A stretch of 53,523 nt of DNA, taken from IMG/VR virus record IMGVR_UViG_3300029825_000389, positions 1-53,523 of that record. One strand, 5' to 3'. Below, one piece after another: positions 11,877-23,218 of the stretch (position 1 is its first letter; each line of letters opens with the position of its first letter). The position numbers were made by a program, and so were the translations under genes. The DNA comes from a virus. A model generated the notes under the pieces. The model did not search any database and was not told the origin of the DNA. It was given only the letters and a program-made list of their open reading frames with translations.

Positions 11877-13061
11877 TTACATATTGGCCAATGCAGTTCG
11901 GACTTCTTTTATAATATGTTCACCTGCTTTGTCGAAAAATTCTTTTTCACCTATAGTTAAGCCATTAAAATTAATTATTATATTTATATCTTTTGAATCT
12001 TTTGAGTCTTTTTTATCACCGTTTATATAACTATCTGCTATATCTAAAAGTTGTTGGGAACGAGAATTATTTTTCTTTAAAGGAATGGCGGCTTCAGGAT
12101 ATTGACCTTCACCAAAAATTGATGCCCTATCTGCTATACCACCATTGGCATATCCTAAATAATTTCCTCCACCCATAAGGCCAGGGATGTTGTAAGGATT
12201 TCCACCCCAACTTTCTCTTATTTCTCTTATAGCTGCACGTACAGACATAACAGGATCAAATATTCCCTCGTCTGTACCAAAATAACTCCTAAAAGTTGAA
12301 GGTAGTACTTGCATTAATCCTGTTGCATATTCATTTCCAACACCAACACCATTTACAAGAGTAGGATCACCTGTACCTAACGTGCCAGGATTTCCACTTT
12401 CACGACTTGCTATCATTTCAAGTGGAAGTAACCAACTCATAGGAGCGCCTTCGGCTATCATACCAGCTAAAATCCATTCAGATACATTTCCATTTACAAC
12501 TCCGCCGCTAGATAAACTTCCTAAGCCACCATGAATTAAATTATAAACCATACTGATAATGCCTTTATTGTCACCCTTATCGAACATAGGTTGTAAAATG
12601 CCCCCTATTGCACTTCCTAAACCATTTTGAGTAAGGCTTGACGTATCACCTATCCATTTCTTTATAAATGCCGCCATATCTGTGTCTTGCAATCCAAGTA
12701 TAAATCCTTCTGGAATATGATTTGCGAGTGTACGCATTACAGCAGACGGAGAATGTATCCCAAAAGTAGTTTTAAACTGGTCAATAACTTTATTTCCTAA
12801 GTCACTTACTATTTGAGTAATATTGCTTGTGCTGTCTTGTATTCCTTTTCCAAATTCCTGCATAGCCTGGGTTGCTGAAACATTACTTTTTGTAGTTAAG
12901 TCTGAATATATGTTTTGAACCCCGGTACTCATATTTGTAGTTGGATCGGTTACAAGCTTTGTATTGTTTGTTATCCCAGTTCCGAATGTTTTCATCATAT
13001 CCACTGGATAAGTATCAAAATCACTTACATTTATACCCTCTCTTTCGAGATACTTAAACAC
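11877..13061 (-). CDS. Tape-measure-distal segment with a lytic transglycosylase (SLT) domain; probable downstream exon or partner of the tape measure gene
   Basis: GIHSPS motif and SLT-like EYATGLMQV. The N-terminus DFDTYPVDMMKTFGTGI resembles the sequence that normally follows the HFxxPDxGPL tape-measure motif. The annotated GTG start has no SD. Confidence 0.6.
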   Translation of the reverse strand: MFKYLEREGINVSDFDTYPVDMMKTFGTGITNNTKLVTDPTTNMSTGVQNIYSDLTTKSNVSATQAMQEFGKGIQDSTSNITQIVSDLGNKVIDQFKTTFGIHSPSAVMRTLANHIPEGFILGLQDTDMAAFIKKWIGDTSSLTQNGLGSAIGGILQPMFDKGDNKGIISMVYNLIHGGLGSLSSGGVVNGNVSEWILAGMIAEGAPMSWLLPLEMIASRESGNPGTLGTGDPTLVNGVGVGNEYATGLMQVLPSTFRSYFGTDEGIFDPVMSVRAAIREIRESWGGNPYNIPGLMGGGNYLGYANGGIADRASIFGEGQYPEAAIPLKKNNSRSQQLLDIADSYINGDKKDSKDSKDINIIINFNGLTIGEKEFFDKAGEHIIKEVRTALANM

Positions 13062-14762
13062 TTATTTAAAAGTGGGATTAGACTATCTCACACTCTTTTT
13101 ATAAAGAGTCCATGCACTTCCAAACTATGATTTTCACATAGAATGTACGAGATTTCTCTCTAGTCGTTACACCCGATTAAACTTGGCACGGTATTGCCAT
13201 AATATATAAATATTGTATAAAAAAAGAGCATTATATAATGCTCTTTAATATTTCTTCTATATTATTAAATTTTGTATATGGTATACGAATTAATCTGATA
13301 TTATTTTCTTTACAAAATATATCTTTTATATTATCTCTTTTCTGAACAATTTTAAGCTTGTCTAAATTTTTCTGCTTATTTTTATTAAATCTAAAAGGTT
13401 TATAATGTCCTTCACCATCATACTCTATACACATATTAATATCATCTAAATAAAAATCAAAAGGCAACTCTTTTTTAAATTTACAATTTGGGAATTTAAA
13501 TTGTGGAATATATGAAATATTGTTATCATCTAACCATTGGGATATTTTTTTCTCGCCCTTACTTTCTACACACTTAGGGCATCCACAACCCCTTAATAAA
13601 GTAGAAGGCCTTGCTTTCCATGTATGTCCGCATAAATTGTGCTTTATTAAAATTTTGGTATTTGAATTTTTATACTCACTTAATACTTCATATTCATTCC
13701 CATATTTACTAGAGACTTCTTCTTTAAATATGGTTGTGTTCTTCTTAACATTCCCAGCACATTTAGGACACCTAACCCCTTTTCTTAATGTACTAATAGT
13801 TGTTTCCCAAATGTAATTTCCACAATTAAAAGAATTGTGTTGTAATTTTAATTTAGTGTGTGCATCTTTATACTCATTAAGTAAAGTGTATTCATCTCCT
13901 ACAAGTTTATGTATCTCAGATTTAATTTCTTCGGTATTTTTCTTAGAATTACCACCGCATTTGATACATCCATGTCCTCTTAATAAATTTGTGGGAGTAC
14001 TTAAATATTCATATCCACATTTGTTGTGCCTAATCATAATTTTGGTGTGTGTATTTTTATATTCTCCAAGCACTTCATACTCGCCTTTATATAAATCATA
14101 AATTTCTTGCTTAAATTGCTTCGTAGTTTTTTTAATACATCCTGCACATTTGGGACAACGTTTCCCACTTAAAAAATTACTGGGACGTACTTTATAAATA
14201 TGCCCACACTTATTATGTTTAACTTTTATAAGAGTATTATTGGTTACATAAGCTTCTAAAAAAGTATATTCGTTACCAACTAATTGATATACTTCTTGCA
14301 AAAATTGTTTATTGGTTTTTCTTGCATTGGCTGCACATCTAGGACACCTTTGACTTAAATCTATAAAATTATGTGGCTGCATGTTAAATGTATAACCGCA
14401 TTTATTATGCTTAATTTCAATTTTGGTTTTACTGTTTAAATATTGTCCTAATATCGTATATTCATTGCCTACCTCTTTAAAAACCTCTTTAATAAATTGT
14501 TCATGTGTCTTATTTTTGCACATAATTTTTAAACCTCCGATAGTTTTATTTTTTCCGAGTATTTAACTTTAAATTAAAGGGAAGGAGTCTCGGAAAACTC
14601 TTTTCAATAAGGGTAATTAAGCCTTATCTATCCCTAACTATATTATACCATATTTAAATTTAATATATAATATTTATATACGTTAGGTTTTCACCGTTAG
14701 CAGTATTTTTACATACCACACCCACTATTTAGTGGTTCACATGGTTCTCATAACACATTGCT
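13060..14762 (-). ncRNA. Group I intron (IA-like, with P7.1/P7.2) carrying a homing-endonuclease ORF
   Basis: Coordinates are plus-strand; RNA is read on the minus strand. R-like element GUAACGACUAGA (13159-13170). S-like element GAGAUAGUC (13081-13089). P7 is GACUA/UAGUC. P8 hairpin 13092-13109. GAAA-tetraloop hairpin 13149-13160. Second hairpin 13125-13141. P1-like 8-bp helix CAUAACAU/GUGUUAUG closed by U.G (14763-14770 with 14749-14756). Splice sites are provisional. Confidence 0.6.
13231..14523 (-). CDS. Intron-encoded homing-endonuclease-like protein: five zinc-ribbon repeats plus a C-terminal PD-(D/E)xK (Vsr/DUF559-like) nuclease domain
   Basis: Five repeats of about 65 aa (...KHNKCGxxF...RCPKCAG...). 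The C-terminus reads LPFDFYL...IEYDGEGH. It has its own SD (ggagg). Paralog of 18554..19531. Confidence 0.65.
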   Translation of the reverse strand: MCKNKTHEQFIKEVFKEVGNEYTILGQYLNSKTKIEIKHNKCGYTFNMQPHNFIDLSQRCPRCAANARKTNKQFLQEVYQLVGNEYTFLEAYVTNNTLIKVKHNKCGHIYKVRPSNFLSGKRCPKCAGCIKKTTKQFKQEIYDLYKGEYEVLGEYKNTHTKIMIRHNKCGYEYLSTPTNLLRGHGCIKCGGNSKKNTEEIKSEIHKLVGDEYTLLNEYKDAHTKLKLQHNSFNCGNYIWETTISTLRKGVRCPKCAGNVKKNTTIFKEEVSSKYGNEYEVLSEYKNSNTKILIKHNLCGHTWKARPSTLLRGCGCPKCVESKGEKKISQWLDDNNISYIPQFKFPNCKFKKELPFDFYLDDINMCIEYDGEGHYKPFRFNKNKQKNLDKLKIVQKRDNIKDIFCKENNIRLIRIPYTKFNNIEEILKSII

Positions 14763-14765
14763 ATG

Positions 14766-16985
14766 TTATGCCGCTAAAGTTAACGGCCCTTTGTCTGGTG
14801 CAGTAAAATGTATTAATTCTTTTATCTTGGCAGCCATAAAAGTTGTAGCATCCGTTACAGATTTAGTGTTATCTTTAATTCCTTTTGCCATACCCTCTGG
14901 AATGTCTTGTCCCCACTTAGTAGATTGTGAAGACATAGAACTCATAGAGCTTGAACTATTAGAAAGGTTCATATTAGGCATCTGGTTAGAGTTATTCATC
15001 ATGTTCATTGACTGCCTATTGCTTAAAATTTTGCTTCCTCCTGGGAGCTTTAATACTTCAGGTCCATTTTCACCTACCCAAGTTTCTCCACCTTCAAAAT
15101 AGCTTGTACCTAACGCATTTTTTTTCTTGGGAATGGGTATAGGAATAGACAGCCCAGGTATTGAAGTAGGAGCACTTACCGTTCCTGCATTGTCTTTATA
15201 GCTTTTTATTATATTAATTGTACCTTGGATTGGATGCTTGAAAAAGTCTATTAAACCATTCCAAGCATCTTCTACGTCTTTAATAACTTCATTAATATAA
15301 GTACGGCATCCGCCAAAATTTGTTTTCCATGCTGCATATAATCCCACAATTGCAAGAACAATCAAACTAATAGCTAATACTATAGGATTAGCTTCAAAGA
15401 AAGCTGTAACAGTACCAAATATACTCATCATTCCAGTTGCAACAGTTCTCATTAATCCAAGTAATTTTACTTTAAGAACACTTCCTATAACCCCAACCCA
15501 TAAATTAAAAGTTCCGGAAAAAGTGGTTAAGACTGCCGGTATTGCTTTAAACACTCCAGTAAATCCCAAACCGAATACTTTAGTTGCTGTTAAAATTGTA
15601 CTGAGTTCCGGAACTATATTTTTAAAAATTCCAACTATAGTAGAAATTCCTTTTATTCCTTCTATCCCTAAAAATAAATTCACAAATAATTTTGGATGTG
15701 CTGCCACAAGTTTTATAATAGGTTCTAATACTTTCCCCACGGCTAATAAAGCAGAACCAAACTCTTTCGCAATTTGAAATCCTGCTTTTACATCACTTAT
15801 AAAGGTTTTAAAATTTGATTCATATTCTTTTAGAGTTTTAGGATTATCAAAGGATTTTAAAAATGTTGTTAGTTTTTGACCTCCTTCTGTAGCCAATTGA
15901 CCTATGTCTTTTTGAAGTTGTGAAAAGGCTTTTGAATCTTGTACTTTATTTAACAATGGCATAATTACTTGTAATTGTTGCTTAAAATTATCAAATAGAC
16001 CACCTTTCATAATAGCACCATTAGCATCTATTCCGGCAAGTCCTCTACCCATACCATTGATAGTATCACCTATATTGCTAATCATTCCTCCTGCTGTGCT
16101 TGATTGCCTAGTCATTAACCCACCATATTTTTCTTGCATAATTTTAGTAACCATATCAACGTTCTTTTGCGGGTCTGTTTGCATTAATTCACCTTGTTTG
16201 CTAAATGTAGCACCAGCCTTTTTCCAGTCTGTATTTGATATACCTAAATCTCTAAACATATCTACAGCTATACCATTTTGACCACTTTTTAACTTTGCCA
16301 TAGCTGCCATAGCTTGTTCCAGTGGCTTATTCATGGCTGCTGCTGTATCCCCTAATGGCATTAAATATTTAGTGTAATCCAATCCACTGGTTGCAAGTTG
16401 AGTTACACCGGAAACTACTTCCTTGGCATCAAAAGGCGTTGCTGCTGCTTGATTATAACTCCATTTTAAAGCTTCACTACCTTTTTTATCACTATGCAGC
16501 ACAGTCTGTAATGTACTTAAATACTTTTCATTACTTATTGCATTTCCTAGTGTTAAATCAAAAGCTTCCTTTCCAGTTGCCCCTAAAACAATTCCTGCTG
16601 CCAATGTTTTTAAATTAAAAATGCTATCTCTTATGCCAGTTATAACAGACTTAGTTTTATCCAATGCTGTTATTTCTAGTTGATAATTAGATTTAATTAA
16701 TGTTTCTGCTTTACTTTTAATACGTTCCATGCTTTCTGTGGCCATATCTTTTGCTGCAACAACTATAGCAATATTCTTTTTAAGCTTATTCATACTTGCT
16801 TGTAATTCTGTGATTTGGCCTTGTGATCTTGTAGTATCTATGTTAATTCTAGCTTCAGACAAAGCTCTTATAGAATTTCTTGCAGCTTGAACTTGCCTAT
16901 CAAATTCAGTTAAATTGCCATTAATTCGTTGAAGTTCTACTGACATGCTATCTTCTAAAATTATTCTTGCACGTATCTCTGCCAA
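14766..16985 (-). CDS. Tail tape measure protein
   Basis: Long coiled-coil/TM-rich protein after the chaperones. C-terminal HFTAPDKGPL motif. Start set to TTG 16985 after SD aaggaggtga. Confidence 0.85.
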   Translation of the reverse strand: MAEIRARIILEDSMSVELQRINGNLTEFDRQVQAARNSIRALSEARINIDTTRSQGQITELQASMNKLKKNIAIVVAAKDMATESMERIKSKAETLIKSNYQLEITALDKTKSVITGIRDSIFNLKTLAAGIVLGATGKEAFDLTLGNAISNEKYLSTLQTVLHSDKKGSEALKWSYNQAAATPFDAKEVVSGVTQLATSGLDYTKYLMPLGDTAAAMNKPLEQAMAAMAKLKSGQNGIAVDMFRDLGISNTDWKKAGATFSKQGELMQTDPQKNVDMVTKIMQEKYGGLMTRQSSTAGGMISNIGDTINGMGRGLAGIDANGAIMKGGLFDNFKQQLQVIMPLLNKVQDSKAFSQLQKDIGQLATEGGQKLTTFLKSFDNPKTLKEYESNFKTFISDVKAGFQIAKEFGSALLAVGKVLEPIIKLVAAHPKLFVNLFLGIEGIKGISTIVGIFKNIVPELSTILTATKVFGLGFTGVFKAIPAVLTTFSGTFNLWVGVIGSVLKVKLLGLMRTVATGMMSIFGTVTAFFEANPIVLAISLIVLAIVGLYAAWKTNFGGCRTYINEVIKDVEDAWNGLIDFFKHPIQGTINIIKSYKDNAGTVSAPTSIPGLSIPIPIPKKKNALGTSYFEGGETWVGENGPEVLKLPGGSKILSNRQSMNMMNNSNQMPNMNLSNSSSSMSSMSSQSTKWGQDIPEGMAKGIKDNTKSVTDATTFMAAKIKELIHFTAPDKGPLTLAA

Positions 16986-17054
16986 ACTTCTCACCTCCTT
17001 AAAAAAGGCAAAAATAAAAAGAGGTTGCCCTCTTATATTAATTTTACTTGATTG

Positions 17055-23047: not shown

Positions 23048-23218
23048 TCCGTTACGTAAAACTTATAAAACTCTATAAAAACTTTATAAAAGTTAATGTT
23101 CACTTCCTCATTCAATGTGTCCGATTTTACCTAAGCTACTTTCGTTTGCTATAACACTCCAAAGGCATAAATTCGGATGTAAACTCACCCTACATATTAG
23201 TAGTATCTTTTAAAATGA

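Follow-up and report, generated by a model that had tools for sequence, protein, structure and literature searches.

Three open reading frames (ORFs) lie in a row in a phage contig, and the question is whether they represent three genes or a single tail tape-measure gene that has been interrupted. The contig is IMG/VR record IMGVR_UViG_3300029825_000389 (positions 1-53,523; 53,523 nt), which originates from a fermentation metagenome and belongs to a Clostridium-type myophage. The whole stretch is referred to as the window, and all feature coordinates are on its minus strand. The ORFs are found at 16994..14766 (742 aa), 14523..13231 (430 aa) and 13061..11877 (394 aa from a GTG), and the public gene calls on the contig give three separate proteins at the locus. 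The upstream ORF ends with ...HFTAPDKGPLTLAA, also read as ...IHFTAPDKGPLTLAA, directly before a TAA stop at 14768-14766. The downstream frame includes DFDTYPVDMMKTFGTGI, also read as ...SDFDTYPVDMMKTFGTGI..., as well as an SLT transglycosylase domain.

As read from the sequence, the locus is one tail tape-measure gene that is split by a presumably mobile group I intron of IA-type architecture with its own endonuclease gene. The tape-measure gene with its C-terminal lytic-transglycosylase domain belongs to a Clostridium-type contractile-tailed phage. Exon 1 (14783..16994) is given by the ORF list and its translation, the listed ORF running on into the intron up to the TAA. Exon 2 (11877..13027) starts with UAAGUGAUUUUGAU and contains the lytic-transglycosylase domain (Pfam SLT). 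That the 1,755 nt between them (13028..14782, from U14782 to G13028) are a group I intron with these boundaries is held with high confidence. The anatomy of the intron, its family membership, the covariation of its helices and the junction were established in the analysis.

A continuous gene in relatives and the predicted junction

In homologous phages the two exon products correspond to one protein. A provisional fusion of both exon products was used as the search query and matched 18 SLT-domain homologues of 954-1342 aa; those that span exon 1 and exon 2 together have 980-1250 aa. Six homologues cover 100% of the query, namely P0002 (55% identity), P0003 (from Clostridium scatologenes), P0006, P0010, P0012 and P0019. 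The sole split match was the window's own 739-aa product P0001, to which the product of the exon 1 ORF is 100% identical (the database gene calls for this ORF begin at 16985). With a junction-centred query, tblastn found annotated tape-measure genes in 69 phage records, and in all 40 of these 69 records that were listed the match consisted of a single aligned piece. A megablast search of phage genomes with the whole 5.1-kb locus gave no match.

The continuity extends to the residues around the insertion point. The motif IHF[ST]xPDKGPL[SA]D[FA]DTY is unbroken in ten uninterrupted homologues, nine of which are found within the 18 SLT-domain hits (P0002-P0016, P0019), while the tenth is the more distant P0022. 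In all ten, exactly one residue (S or A) separates GPL from D[FA]DTY, and in P0002, P0003 and P0010 the peptide GPLSDFDTY is identical to that of the predicted junction. The alignment of the predicted spliced protein with P0002 runs through the junction with 0 gaps, and 59% of the residues are identical over 169 aa (E 4e-69). The two exon products are thus colinear with a single homologous protein and the fused product is gapless at the junction, which bears out an earlier reading of this DNA, made from the letters alone (the sequence-only reading), that one tape-measure gene is split here. The alignment with intron-less relatives that it had proposed as a check returned a continuous single gene.

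The splice sites can be placed to the nucleotide. Exon 1 ends with ...GGG CCG U|UA ACU UUA GCG GCA UAA, where the bar marks the 5' splice site, and the intron ends with ...GGGUAUAAAUG|UAAGUGAUUUUGAU, where the 3' splice site follows AAAUG and the last intron base (omega-G) is G13028. UAA follows both boundaries, so that four registers yield an identical ligated sequence. Only a single register satisfies both the U at the 5' site and the G at the 3' site, with exon 1 ending at U14783 and the intron at G13028, the latter being an invariant column in an eight-sequence family alignment (A1). The intron lies in phase 1, after the first base of a codon, and its limits are supported by the uninterrupted homologues, the U.G pair of P1 and the invariant terminal G.

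Ligation gives CCG UUA AGU GAU UUU GAU, encoding P-L-S-D-F-D (...PDKGPLSDFDTYPVDMMK...). The ligated exons measure 3,363 nt and are in frame for 1,120 aa with one stop, the terminal one; the product reads ...TAPDKGPLSDFDTYPVDMMK.... Across the junction the predicted protein is ...HFTAPDKGPL-S-DFDTYPVDMMK..., and the ligated RNA would read GGGCCGU|UAAGUGAU. The corresponding complementary DNA is predicted as ...CAGACAAAGGGCCGT|TAAGTGATTTTGATAC... with the junction peptide ...APDKGPLSDFDTYPVDMMK, and the intron-less site as ACCAGACAAAGGGCCGTTAAGTGATTTTGATACTTATCC. At the DNA level, the ligated GGGCCGT|TAAGTGATTTTGAT can be set against GGACCATTAAGCGATTTTGAC of the intron-less L001.

The sequence-only reading had called the splice outcome unclear. 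It had placed the splice site 3 nt after the TAA stop and had listed three candidate junctions, none of which is the supported one (CCG-UUA-AGU-GAU). The true site follows U14783, 20 nt upstream of the one proposed. The apparent oddity arose because P1 had been mis-assigned: with the correct P1 (GCCGU/GCGGC) the stop would be removed and an in-frame GPLSDFDTY would result. The TAA occupies intron nt 15-17, with the 5' splice site 15 nt before it, and would therefore be removed by splicing, leaving the junction in frame. Because this stop lies within the intron, ribosomes on the unspliced RNA would terminate early, and the transglycosylase half would thus be translated from the spliced mRNA only. 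The downstream ORF had also been described as lacking a Shine-Dalgarno sequence, and indeed none is present at GTG 13061, which is located within P9.

By analogy, splicing would follow the guanosine-initiated, two-step transesterification pathway. P1 would arise from the pairing of the exon end GCCGU with the internal guide GCGGC, whereupon an exogenous guanosine would attack after U14783. Exon 2 would be aligned by P10, the pairing of UUUA with UAAG. The freed exon 1 could then attack after G13028, the last intron base, and the mRNA for a single 1,120-aa protein would result.

Architecture and family of the intron RNA

The intron is of IA-type architecture, and its helices can be followed from the 5' splice site onwards. 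P1 (14770..14787) is formed by the exon segment GCCGU (14787-14783) and the guide GCGGC (14774-14770), with U14783.G14774 at the splice site, and is found in the minimum free energy fold of the single sequence. It is extended by the pairs U14782-A14775 and A14781-U14776, leaving the loop ACUU, and its U.G pair is invariant in 8/8 aligned relatives. The guide half of P10 (UUUA, 14775..14778) was read from the sequence and would pair with the start of exon 2 (UAAG, 13027-13024). P1 is followed by the hairpin P2, (C)AUAACAU/GUGUUAU(G) (14749..14770; RNAalifold columns 22-41), in which 8/8 pairs show compensatory changes among the 8 sequences. This is the 8-bp helix CAUAACAU/GUGUUAUG (14770-14763 with 14756-14749) of the sequence-only reading. 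The helix exists as described, but it is not P1: in all eight aligned relatives it is P2, with the invariant U.G upstream of it.

The 5' strand of P3, CCAUG(U) at 14739..14744, pairs over a long range with 13115-13110, as seen both with RNAalifold and in the single-sequence fold, and 4/6 of its pairs carry compensatory changes. Between P3 and P4, two hairpins occupy J3/4 (14703..14735): CCAC...GUGG at 14735-14722 and GUAU...AUAC at 14716-14703. They covary in relatives and occur in one sub-lineage (L034, L022, L029, L026, L008 and Staphylococcus phage PT1-1), while L021-type relatives are without them and run from P3-UGAAA straight to P4. An assignment of the two hairpins to P4/P5 or to P2.1 was rejected; the hairpin-less relatives keep the P3-UGAA-...-ACGGUG frame. 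No description of a J3/4 hairpin insertion of this kind was found in the searchable literature ('P3.1/P3.2' search). A smaller possibility is that phage IA introns with these covarying J3/4 hairpins form a structural subclass of their own that has yet to be described.

The 5' strand of P4, ACGGUG at 14692..14697 (the 'P' element CUAACGGUGAAAA), is invariant in the family alignment and pairs with UACCGU (13193-13188), so that this pairing spans the ORF insertion. P5 and the 5' strand of P5a follow at 14669..14687. P5 consists of CC (14687-14686) with GG (13198-13197), and P5a of 13 bp formed by GUAUAUAAAUAUU (14681-14669) with 13214-13202. P5a closes a loop of 1,454 nt (14668-13215), which holds the 430-aa ORF. 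The sequence, the covariation of the P5/P5a pairs in relatives and the fold of the ORF-deleted intron all support this arrangement. A local hairpin, CCUAAC/GUUAGG (14687-14682 with 14638-14633), was considered as P5 and rejected in favour of the long-range P5/P5a, the equivalent positions being paired in ORF-less relatives.

The 3' catalytic core (13079..13195) was defined by covariance model R1 and by family covariation. It begins with the 3' strand of P4, the 'Q' element AAUACCGUGCCAAG (13195-13182), followed by P6 (GCC 13187-13185 with GGU 13173-13171) and the R element GUAACGACUAGA (13170-13159). P7 is formed by GACUA (13165-13161) and UAGUC (13085-13081). P7.1 (13160-13149) is the GAAA-tetraloop hairpin GAGA-GAAA-UCUC and P7.2 (13141-13125) the hairpin CUAUG...CAUAG. 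The 3' strand of P3 (13115-13110), the 7-bp P8 (ACUCUUU/AAAGAGU, 13109-13092) and the S element GAGAUAGUC (13089-13081) complete the core. P7 crosses P3 (14744-14739/13115-13110), which is the group I pseudoknot, and the extra helices P7.1 and P7.2, which come after the 5' strand of P7 and before the 3' strand of P3, are the IA hallmark. The R and S elements, P7, the P7.1/P7.2 hairpins and the 7-bp P8 had all been placed correctly by the sequence-only reading, and the IA-type group I core that they form is matched by R1.

The P9 domain and the 3' end of the intron extend over 13028..13078 (RNAalifold pairs 386-388/424-426 and 412-415/420-423). CCC (13076-13074) pairs with GGG (13038-13036), and the domain also has a hairpin at 13074-13059 and the GAAA hairpin UCUC-GAAA-GAGA at 13050-13039; UAUAAAU and G13028 follow. 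It had been suspected that the GAAA hairpin could be P9 and would push the 3' site downstream. It does belong to P9, and the last intron base lies beyond it.

The structure is supported by a covariance model, by covariation and by folding. Model R1 covers the core from the Q element via P6, P7, P7.1, P7.2 and P8 to S, and the 20 loci used to build it did not include the window. It matches 13195-13079 over its full length with 82.5 bits (E 4.5e-17), the next-best match in the 53.5-kb window having an E value of 0.5; other family members score 43.6-122 bits. The R, S, P and Q elements of the window are identical to the family consensus. When 58 distinct members of the family were aligned to the model, standard pairs filled 93.4% of cells, compared with 66% after shuffling and 32-42% for slid controls; fitting the alignment to the model biases this figure towards the structure, but the slid controls and the independent RNAalifold prediction concur. 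Changes on both sides were found in 24/29 pairs, including 4/4 in P7.1 and 5/5 in P7.2 (helices 4 and 5), and the P7 pairs are almost invariant. RNAalifold was run on the window intron, with GAAA in place of the P5a loop, together with seven relatives. It recovered P1, P2, the long-range P3, the J3/4 hairpins, P4, P5, P5a, P6, P7.1, P9 and P9.1, with compensatory changes in 31/59 predicted pairs. Folded as a single sequence, the ORF-deleted intron reaches a z score of -5.97 against shuffles, and P1, P2 and the long-range P3 are part of this fold. An alignment of the 3' half (A3) was dropped, as L029 was misaligned in it, and the core alignment A4 was used instead.

Related sequences are found in many other phages. 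With the 3' non-coding part of the intron, blastn matched 68 phage records. Over the stretch that starts with P7', includes P9 and ends at the 3' splice site, it is 81-87% identical to inserts that carry HNH genes and split terminase genes in Twort-like and SPO1-like phages; there the matching stretch is bounded by the gene of the HNH endonuclease on one side and by exon 2 of the terminase gene on the other. The records of these inserts carry no intron annotation, and the inserts can be read as group I introns of the same family. The 5' non-coding part gave no blastn match in phages, so only the 3' part is conserved at the level detected by blastn. A pattern across the Q and R elements was found in 68 viral contigs, most of them with a compact, ORF-less P4-P5. 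An ORF-less copy of the same architecture occurs in L006/L034, and in L006 it lies upstream of a relative of the endonuclease.

Other tape-measure genes also contain ORF-less introns of the family, at L022:163-450 (-) and L029:719-1044 (+). These two sites are six codons apart in ...AEDSxxIADKLNEVDNNYAVTT..., at IAD|KLNEVD in L022 and at KLNEVD|NNYAVTT in L029, and each guide sequence fits its own site. In L016, L019, L028, L051 and L072 the core model matches twice each, and some phages therefore carry two family introns within a few kilobases.

Alternative explanations

The locus could be explained in other ways, and several observations weigh against a functional intron. Splicing is known here as a prediction from the sequence and the family. 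An intron-less allele close to this phage was not found, the nearest being 55% identical in protein, and a degenerate pattern of the ligated junction gave no match in metagenome contigs. P6 has only 3 bp and is without the P6a extension usual in most relatives, although L054 is equally short. The local hairpin CCUAAC/GUUAGG competes with the long-range P5/P5a. Across the stop codon of the endonuclease and inside the intron, a consensus scan found a terminator-like hairpin (13223..13246), a 10-bp palindrome AAAGAGCAUUAUAUAAUGCUCUUU followed by U7. It is positioned upstream of the 3' half of the core, and if it were efficient, the full ribozyme would not form; termination at this point would come at the expense of both splicing and exon 2 expression. 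Alternatively, it might serve the message of the endonuclease by stabilising it or by setting its end. Finally, the Rfam group I model RF00028 gave no match, neither in the window at the gathering score nor in 12800-15000 at E values up to 10. The covariance-model scan that the sequence-only reading had suggested thus failed with the general model and succeeded with the family model. At E values up to 1, RF00028 recognises neither L006, a relative without the ORF, nor the terminase inserts of staphylococcal phages (L007-L009), and the negative result therefore says little about this lineage. It mainly reflects the weakness of the model for this lineage and for large ORF inserts.

The terminator-like hairpin, the short P6, the silence of Rfam and the predicted status of splicing could together point to a decayed, splicing-dead intron. 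The gene would then be permanently split, with a 742-aa protein from exon 1, and exon 2 would be expressed from GTG 13061 or not at all. However, all core helices are intact, the full-length score lies within the range of the family, and the R, S, P and Q elements equal its consensus. The exons are undamaged and in frame over the predicted junction, the GTG has no Shine-Dalgarno sequence and lies inside P9, and the endonuclease ORF is intact with the homologue-invariant residues present. Decay is consequently regarded as improbable. Still less probable is an intron that uses CAUAACAU/GUGUUAUG as P1 and splices 3 nt beyond the TAA, or in one of the other ways listed, so that the stop is kept or translation restarts at a UUG and two polypeptides are made. 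The 8-bp helix is real and the pair that closes it beside the hairpin loop is a U.G, but the equivalent helix is P2 in all eight family members, where its 8 pairs covary and the invariant U.G of the true P1 precedes it. The junctions obtained in this way retain an extra T-L-A-A and a stop that no homologue has, whereas the true P1 with P10 gives a gapless match to the homologues. It is hardly credible, in the end, that a free-standing endonuclease gene simply lies between two ordinary adjacent genes. Such genes do exist, as a free-standing paralogue is present in the window at 19531-18554, and the endonuclease relatives in the viral contigs L004 and L005 are not embedded in this intron family and have no such core. 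Nevertheless, homologues encode a continuous protein over the insertion point, and a complete group I core flanks the ORF on both sides. A group I intron that joins both exons in frame is thus the preferred explanation.

The endonuclease and comparison with known systems

The putative homing-endonuclease ORF (13231..14523, 430 aa) occupies the terminal loop of P5a and has its own Shine-Dalgarno sequence, GGAGG at 14538-14534, as had been recognised in the sequence-only reading. Pfam assigns DUF4379 (a treble-clef zinc finger) and CapR to it, and in PHROGs it matches phrog_559, phrog_9084 and phrog_7140, which are annotated as 'HNH endonuclease', 'homing endonuclease' and 'intron encoded nuclease'. 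Its homologues number more than 5,700 and come mainly from Bacillota, and some of them are named 'DUF2726 domain-containing' or 'PDDEXK family nuclease'. A literature search for 'CapR / treble clef / endonuclease' found nothing relevant.

An AlphaFold2 model built from 33 sequences has a mean predicted local distance difference test (pLDDT) score of 85.9, with pLDDT > 90 in the C-terminal alpha/beta domain. The N-terminal 315 residues form five repeats of a helix / three-strand / helix zinc-ribbon module with CxxC motifs; a NUMOD/helix-turn-helix region was looked for at the N-terminus and is not the type found. With Foldseek, the C-terminal domain of the model matches Vsr (PDB 1cw0, 1vsr) with a probability of 1.0 and a target template modelling score of 0.58-0.59. 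It also matches mitoribosomal proteins, which we take to be RAP/FASTK-type Vsr-like domains. Searches of PDB sequences with the endonuclease, as single sequence and as profile, returned neither Vsr nor 3r3p, and 3r3p is absent from the top 50 Foldseek matches. The residues E324, D356, E367, G370, H373, D397 and K400 are invariant across the aligned homologues. The modelled C-terminal nuclease domain would accordingly be Vsr-like; membership in the EDxHD family is not claimed. The presumed role of the endonuclease is to cleave alleles without the intron at the conserved PDKGPL|SDFDTY motif and to drive homing.

The free-standing paralogue (325 aa) is situated between the tail-tube gene (20288-19830) and the gene of a tail-assembly chaperone (17901-17449). 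Inspection of its sequence reveals three zinc-ribbon modules and a DUF2726/Vsr-like nuclease, and no intron core was detected in its vicinity with the covariance model. At the same position, the intron-less L001 has a different endonuclease-like ORF (DUF723).

Two further elements were noticed around the start of the intron-encoded gene. TGGTATAAT, an extended -10-like motif at 14642-14650 in the P5 loop, lies ~120 nt upstream of the endonuclease ATG and could be a separate endonuclease promoter; the consensus scan did not list it, as it has no -35 match. Just upstream of the Shine-Dalgarno GGAGG, inspection of the sequence revealed a 9-bp stem UUUUCCGAG/CUCGGAAAA (14551-14597) with CUCC in its loop. 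Sequestration of the ribosome-binding site has been described for some phage intron endonuclease genes, and this stem may act likewise on the endonuclease.

Tape-measure genes are already known to harbour group I introns, and the present one is one more case. In prophages of the Bacillus cereus group, TMP-IVS1, -IVS2 and -IVS3 occupy three tape-measure sites (Tourasse & Kolsto 2008, PMC2504315), and a further tape-measure intron is found in Lactobacillus phage JCL1032 (PMC2504315). By published description, these introns are alike in the tape-measure host gene, the IA class of phage introns, insertion into the most conserved motifs and a stop within the first intron nucleotides, and some of them also carry homing-endonuclease genes. 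Early in-frame intron stops are the rule for the Bacillus prophage introns, and some of the Bacillus tape-measure introns resemble those of Twort and other staphylococcal phages in sequence (PMC2504315). They differ in their endonucleases, which are GIY-YIG or H-N-H proteins rather than a zinc-ribbon array with a Vsr-like domain, and in host lineage. Phage introns in other structural genes have been documented as well (PMC3706429, PMC4299906).

Other introns offer parallels to individual parts. The inserts in the terminase large-subunit genes of Twort-like and related staphylococcal phages (S2G3, PT1-1, vB_SscM-1) and of SPO1-like Bacillus phages differ in host gene and carry HNH endonuclease genes. 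The PT1-1 insert shares the whole layout, including the two J3/4 hairpins and the GUAACGACUA and AUAGUC elements, but its ORF is placed after P4', in the P6 region, instead of P5. In the T4 td intron (IA2) the P and Q elements resemble those of the window, with ACGGGG...AAUCCCGUGCUAAAU in td versus ACGGUG...AAUACCGUGCCAAGU here. It likewise has P7.1, P7.2 and an endonuclease ORF in a peripheral loop, but that ORF (I-TevI, GIY-YIG) lies in P6a, and J3/4 hairpins are absent. For the endonuclease, a precedent is I-Bth0305I, the EDxHD prototype, which is encoded by the group I intron in recA of Bacillus thuringiensis phage 0305phi8-36 and whose ORF interrupts P5 (PMC3239194). Both share the location in P5 and an Asp-to-His spacing of 17 (D356/H373 here, D196/H213 there; PMC3239194), and the Vsr-like fold of the I-Bth0305I nuclease domain may also be that of the domain modelled here. 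In contrast, the N-terminus of I-Bth0305I is of the NUMOD/helix-turn-helix type, in place of the five zinc-ribbon modules. Vsr, DUF559, DUF2726 and 3r3p have been placed in one PD-(D/E)XK group (Steczkiewicz et al., PMC3424549).

Elsewhere in the window, a RAGATH-18 RNA was detected at 23104-23165 (-) with 69 bits, above the Rfam gathering score. It is located 54 nt downstream of a TnpB/OrfB_IS605 (Cas12f-like) ORF at ~24376-23219 (-), which sits among head and connector genes. Together they look like an IS605-family element with a guide-type RNA within the structural module of the phage.

For the annotation of such phages, the intron was overlooked by gene callers and by Rfam alike. ORFs 16994..14766 and 13061..11877 should be annotated as one 1,120-aa tape-measure/transglycosylase protein, and ORF 14523..13231 deserves the label of an intron-encoded endonuclease. 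The current understanding of group I introns is unchanged by this case. It adds a Clostridium-type phage and the insertion motif PDKGPL|SDFDTY to the habit of these introns of targeting conserved parts of tape-measure genes (the Bacillus sites being known by description), and the same intron family is present at two further tape-measure sites in viral contigs (L022, L029).

The intron is also linked to an abundant, unstudied family of nucleases with zinc ribbons and a Vsr-like domain, and this endonuclease family is the least-explored element of the locus. The number of modules, five in the intron ORF and three in the paralogue, varies between its members, and the length of relatives of up to ~740 aa suggests that they carry more. 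It is a tentative and rather doubtful proposal that both proteins represent a large, experimentally uncharacterised homing-endonuclease lineage in which a variable zinc-ribbon array is fused to a Vsr-like nuclease and each module might read a few bp. If true, this lineage would provide a naturally modular DNA-targeting nuclease, distinct from I-Bth0305I.

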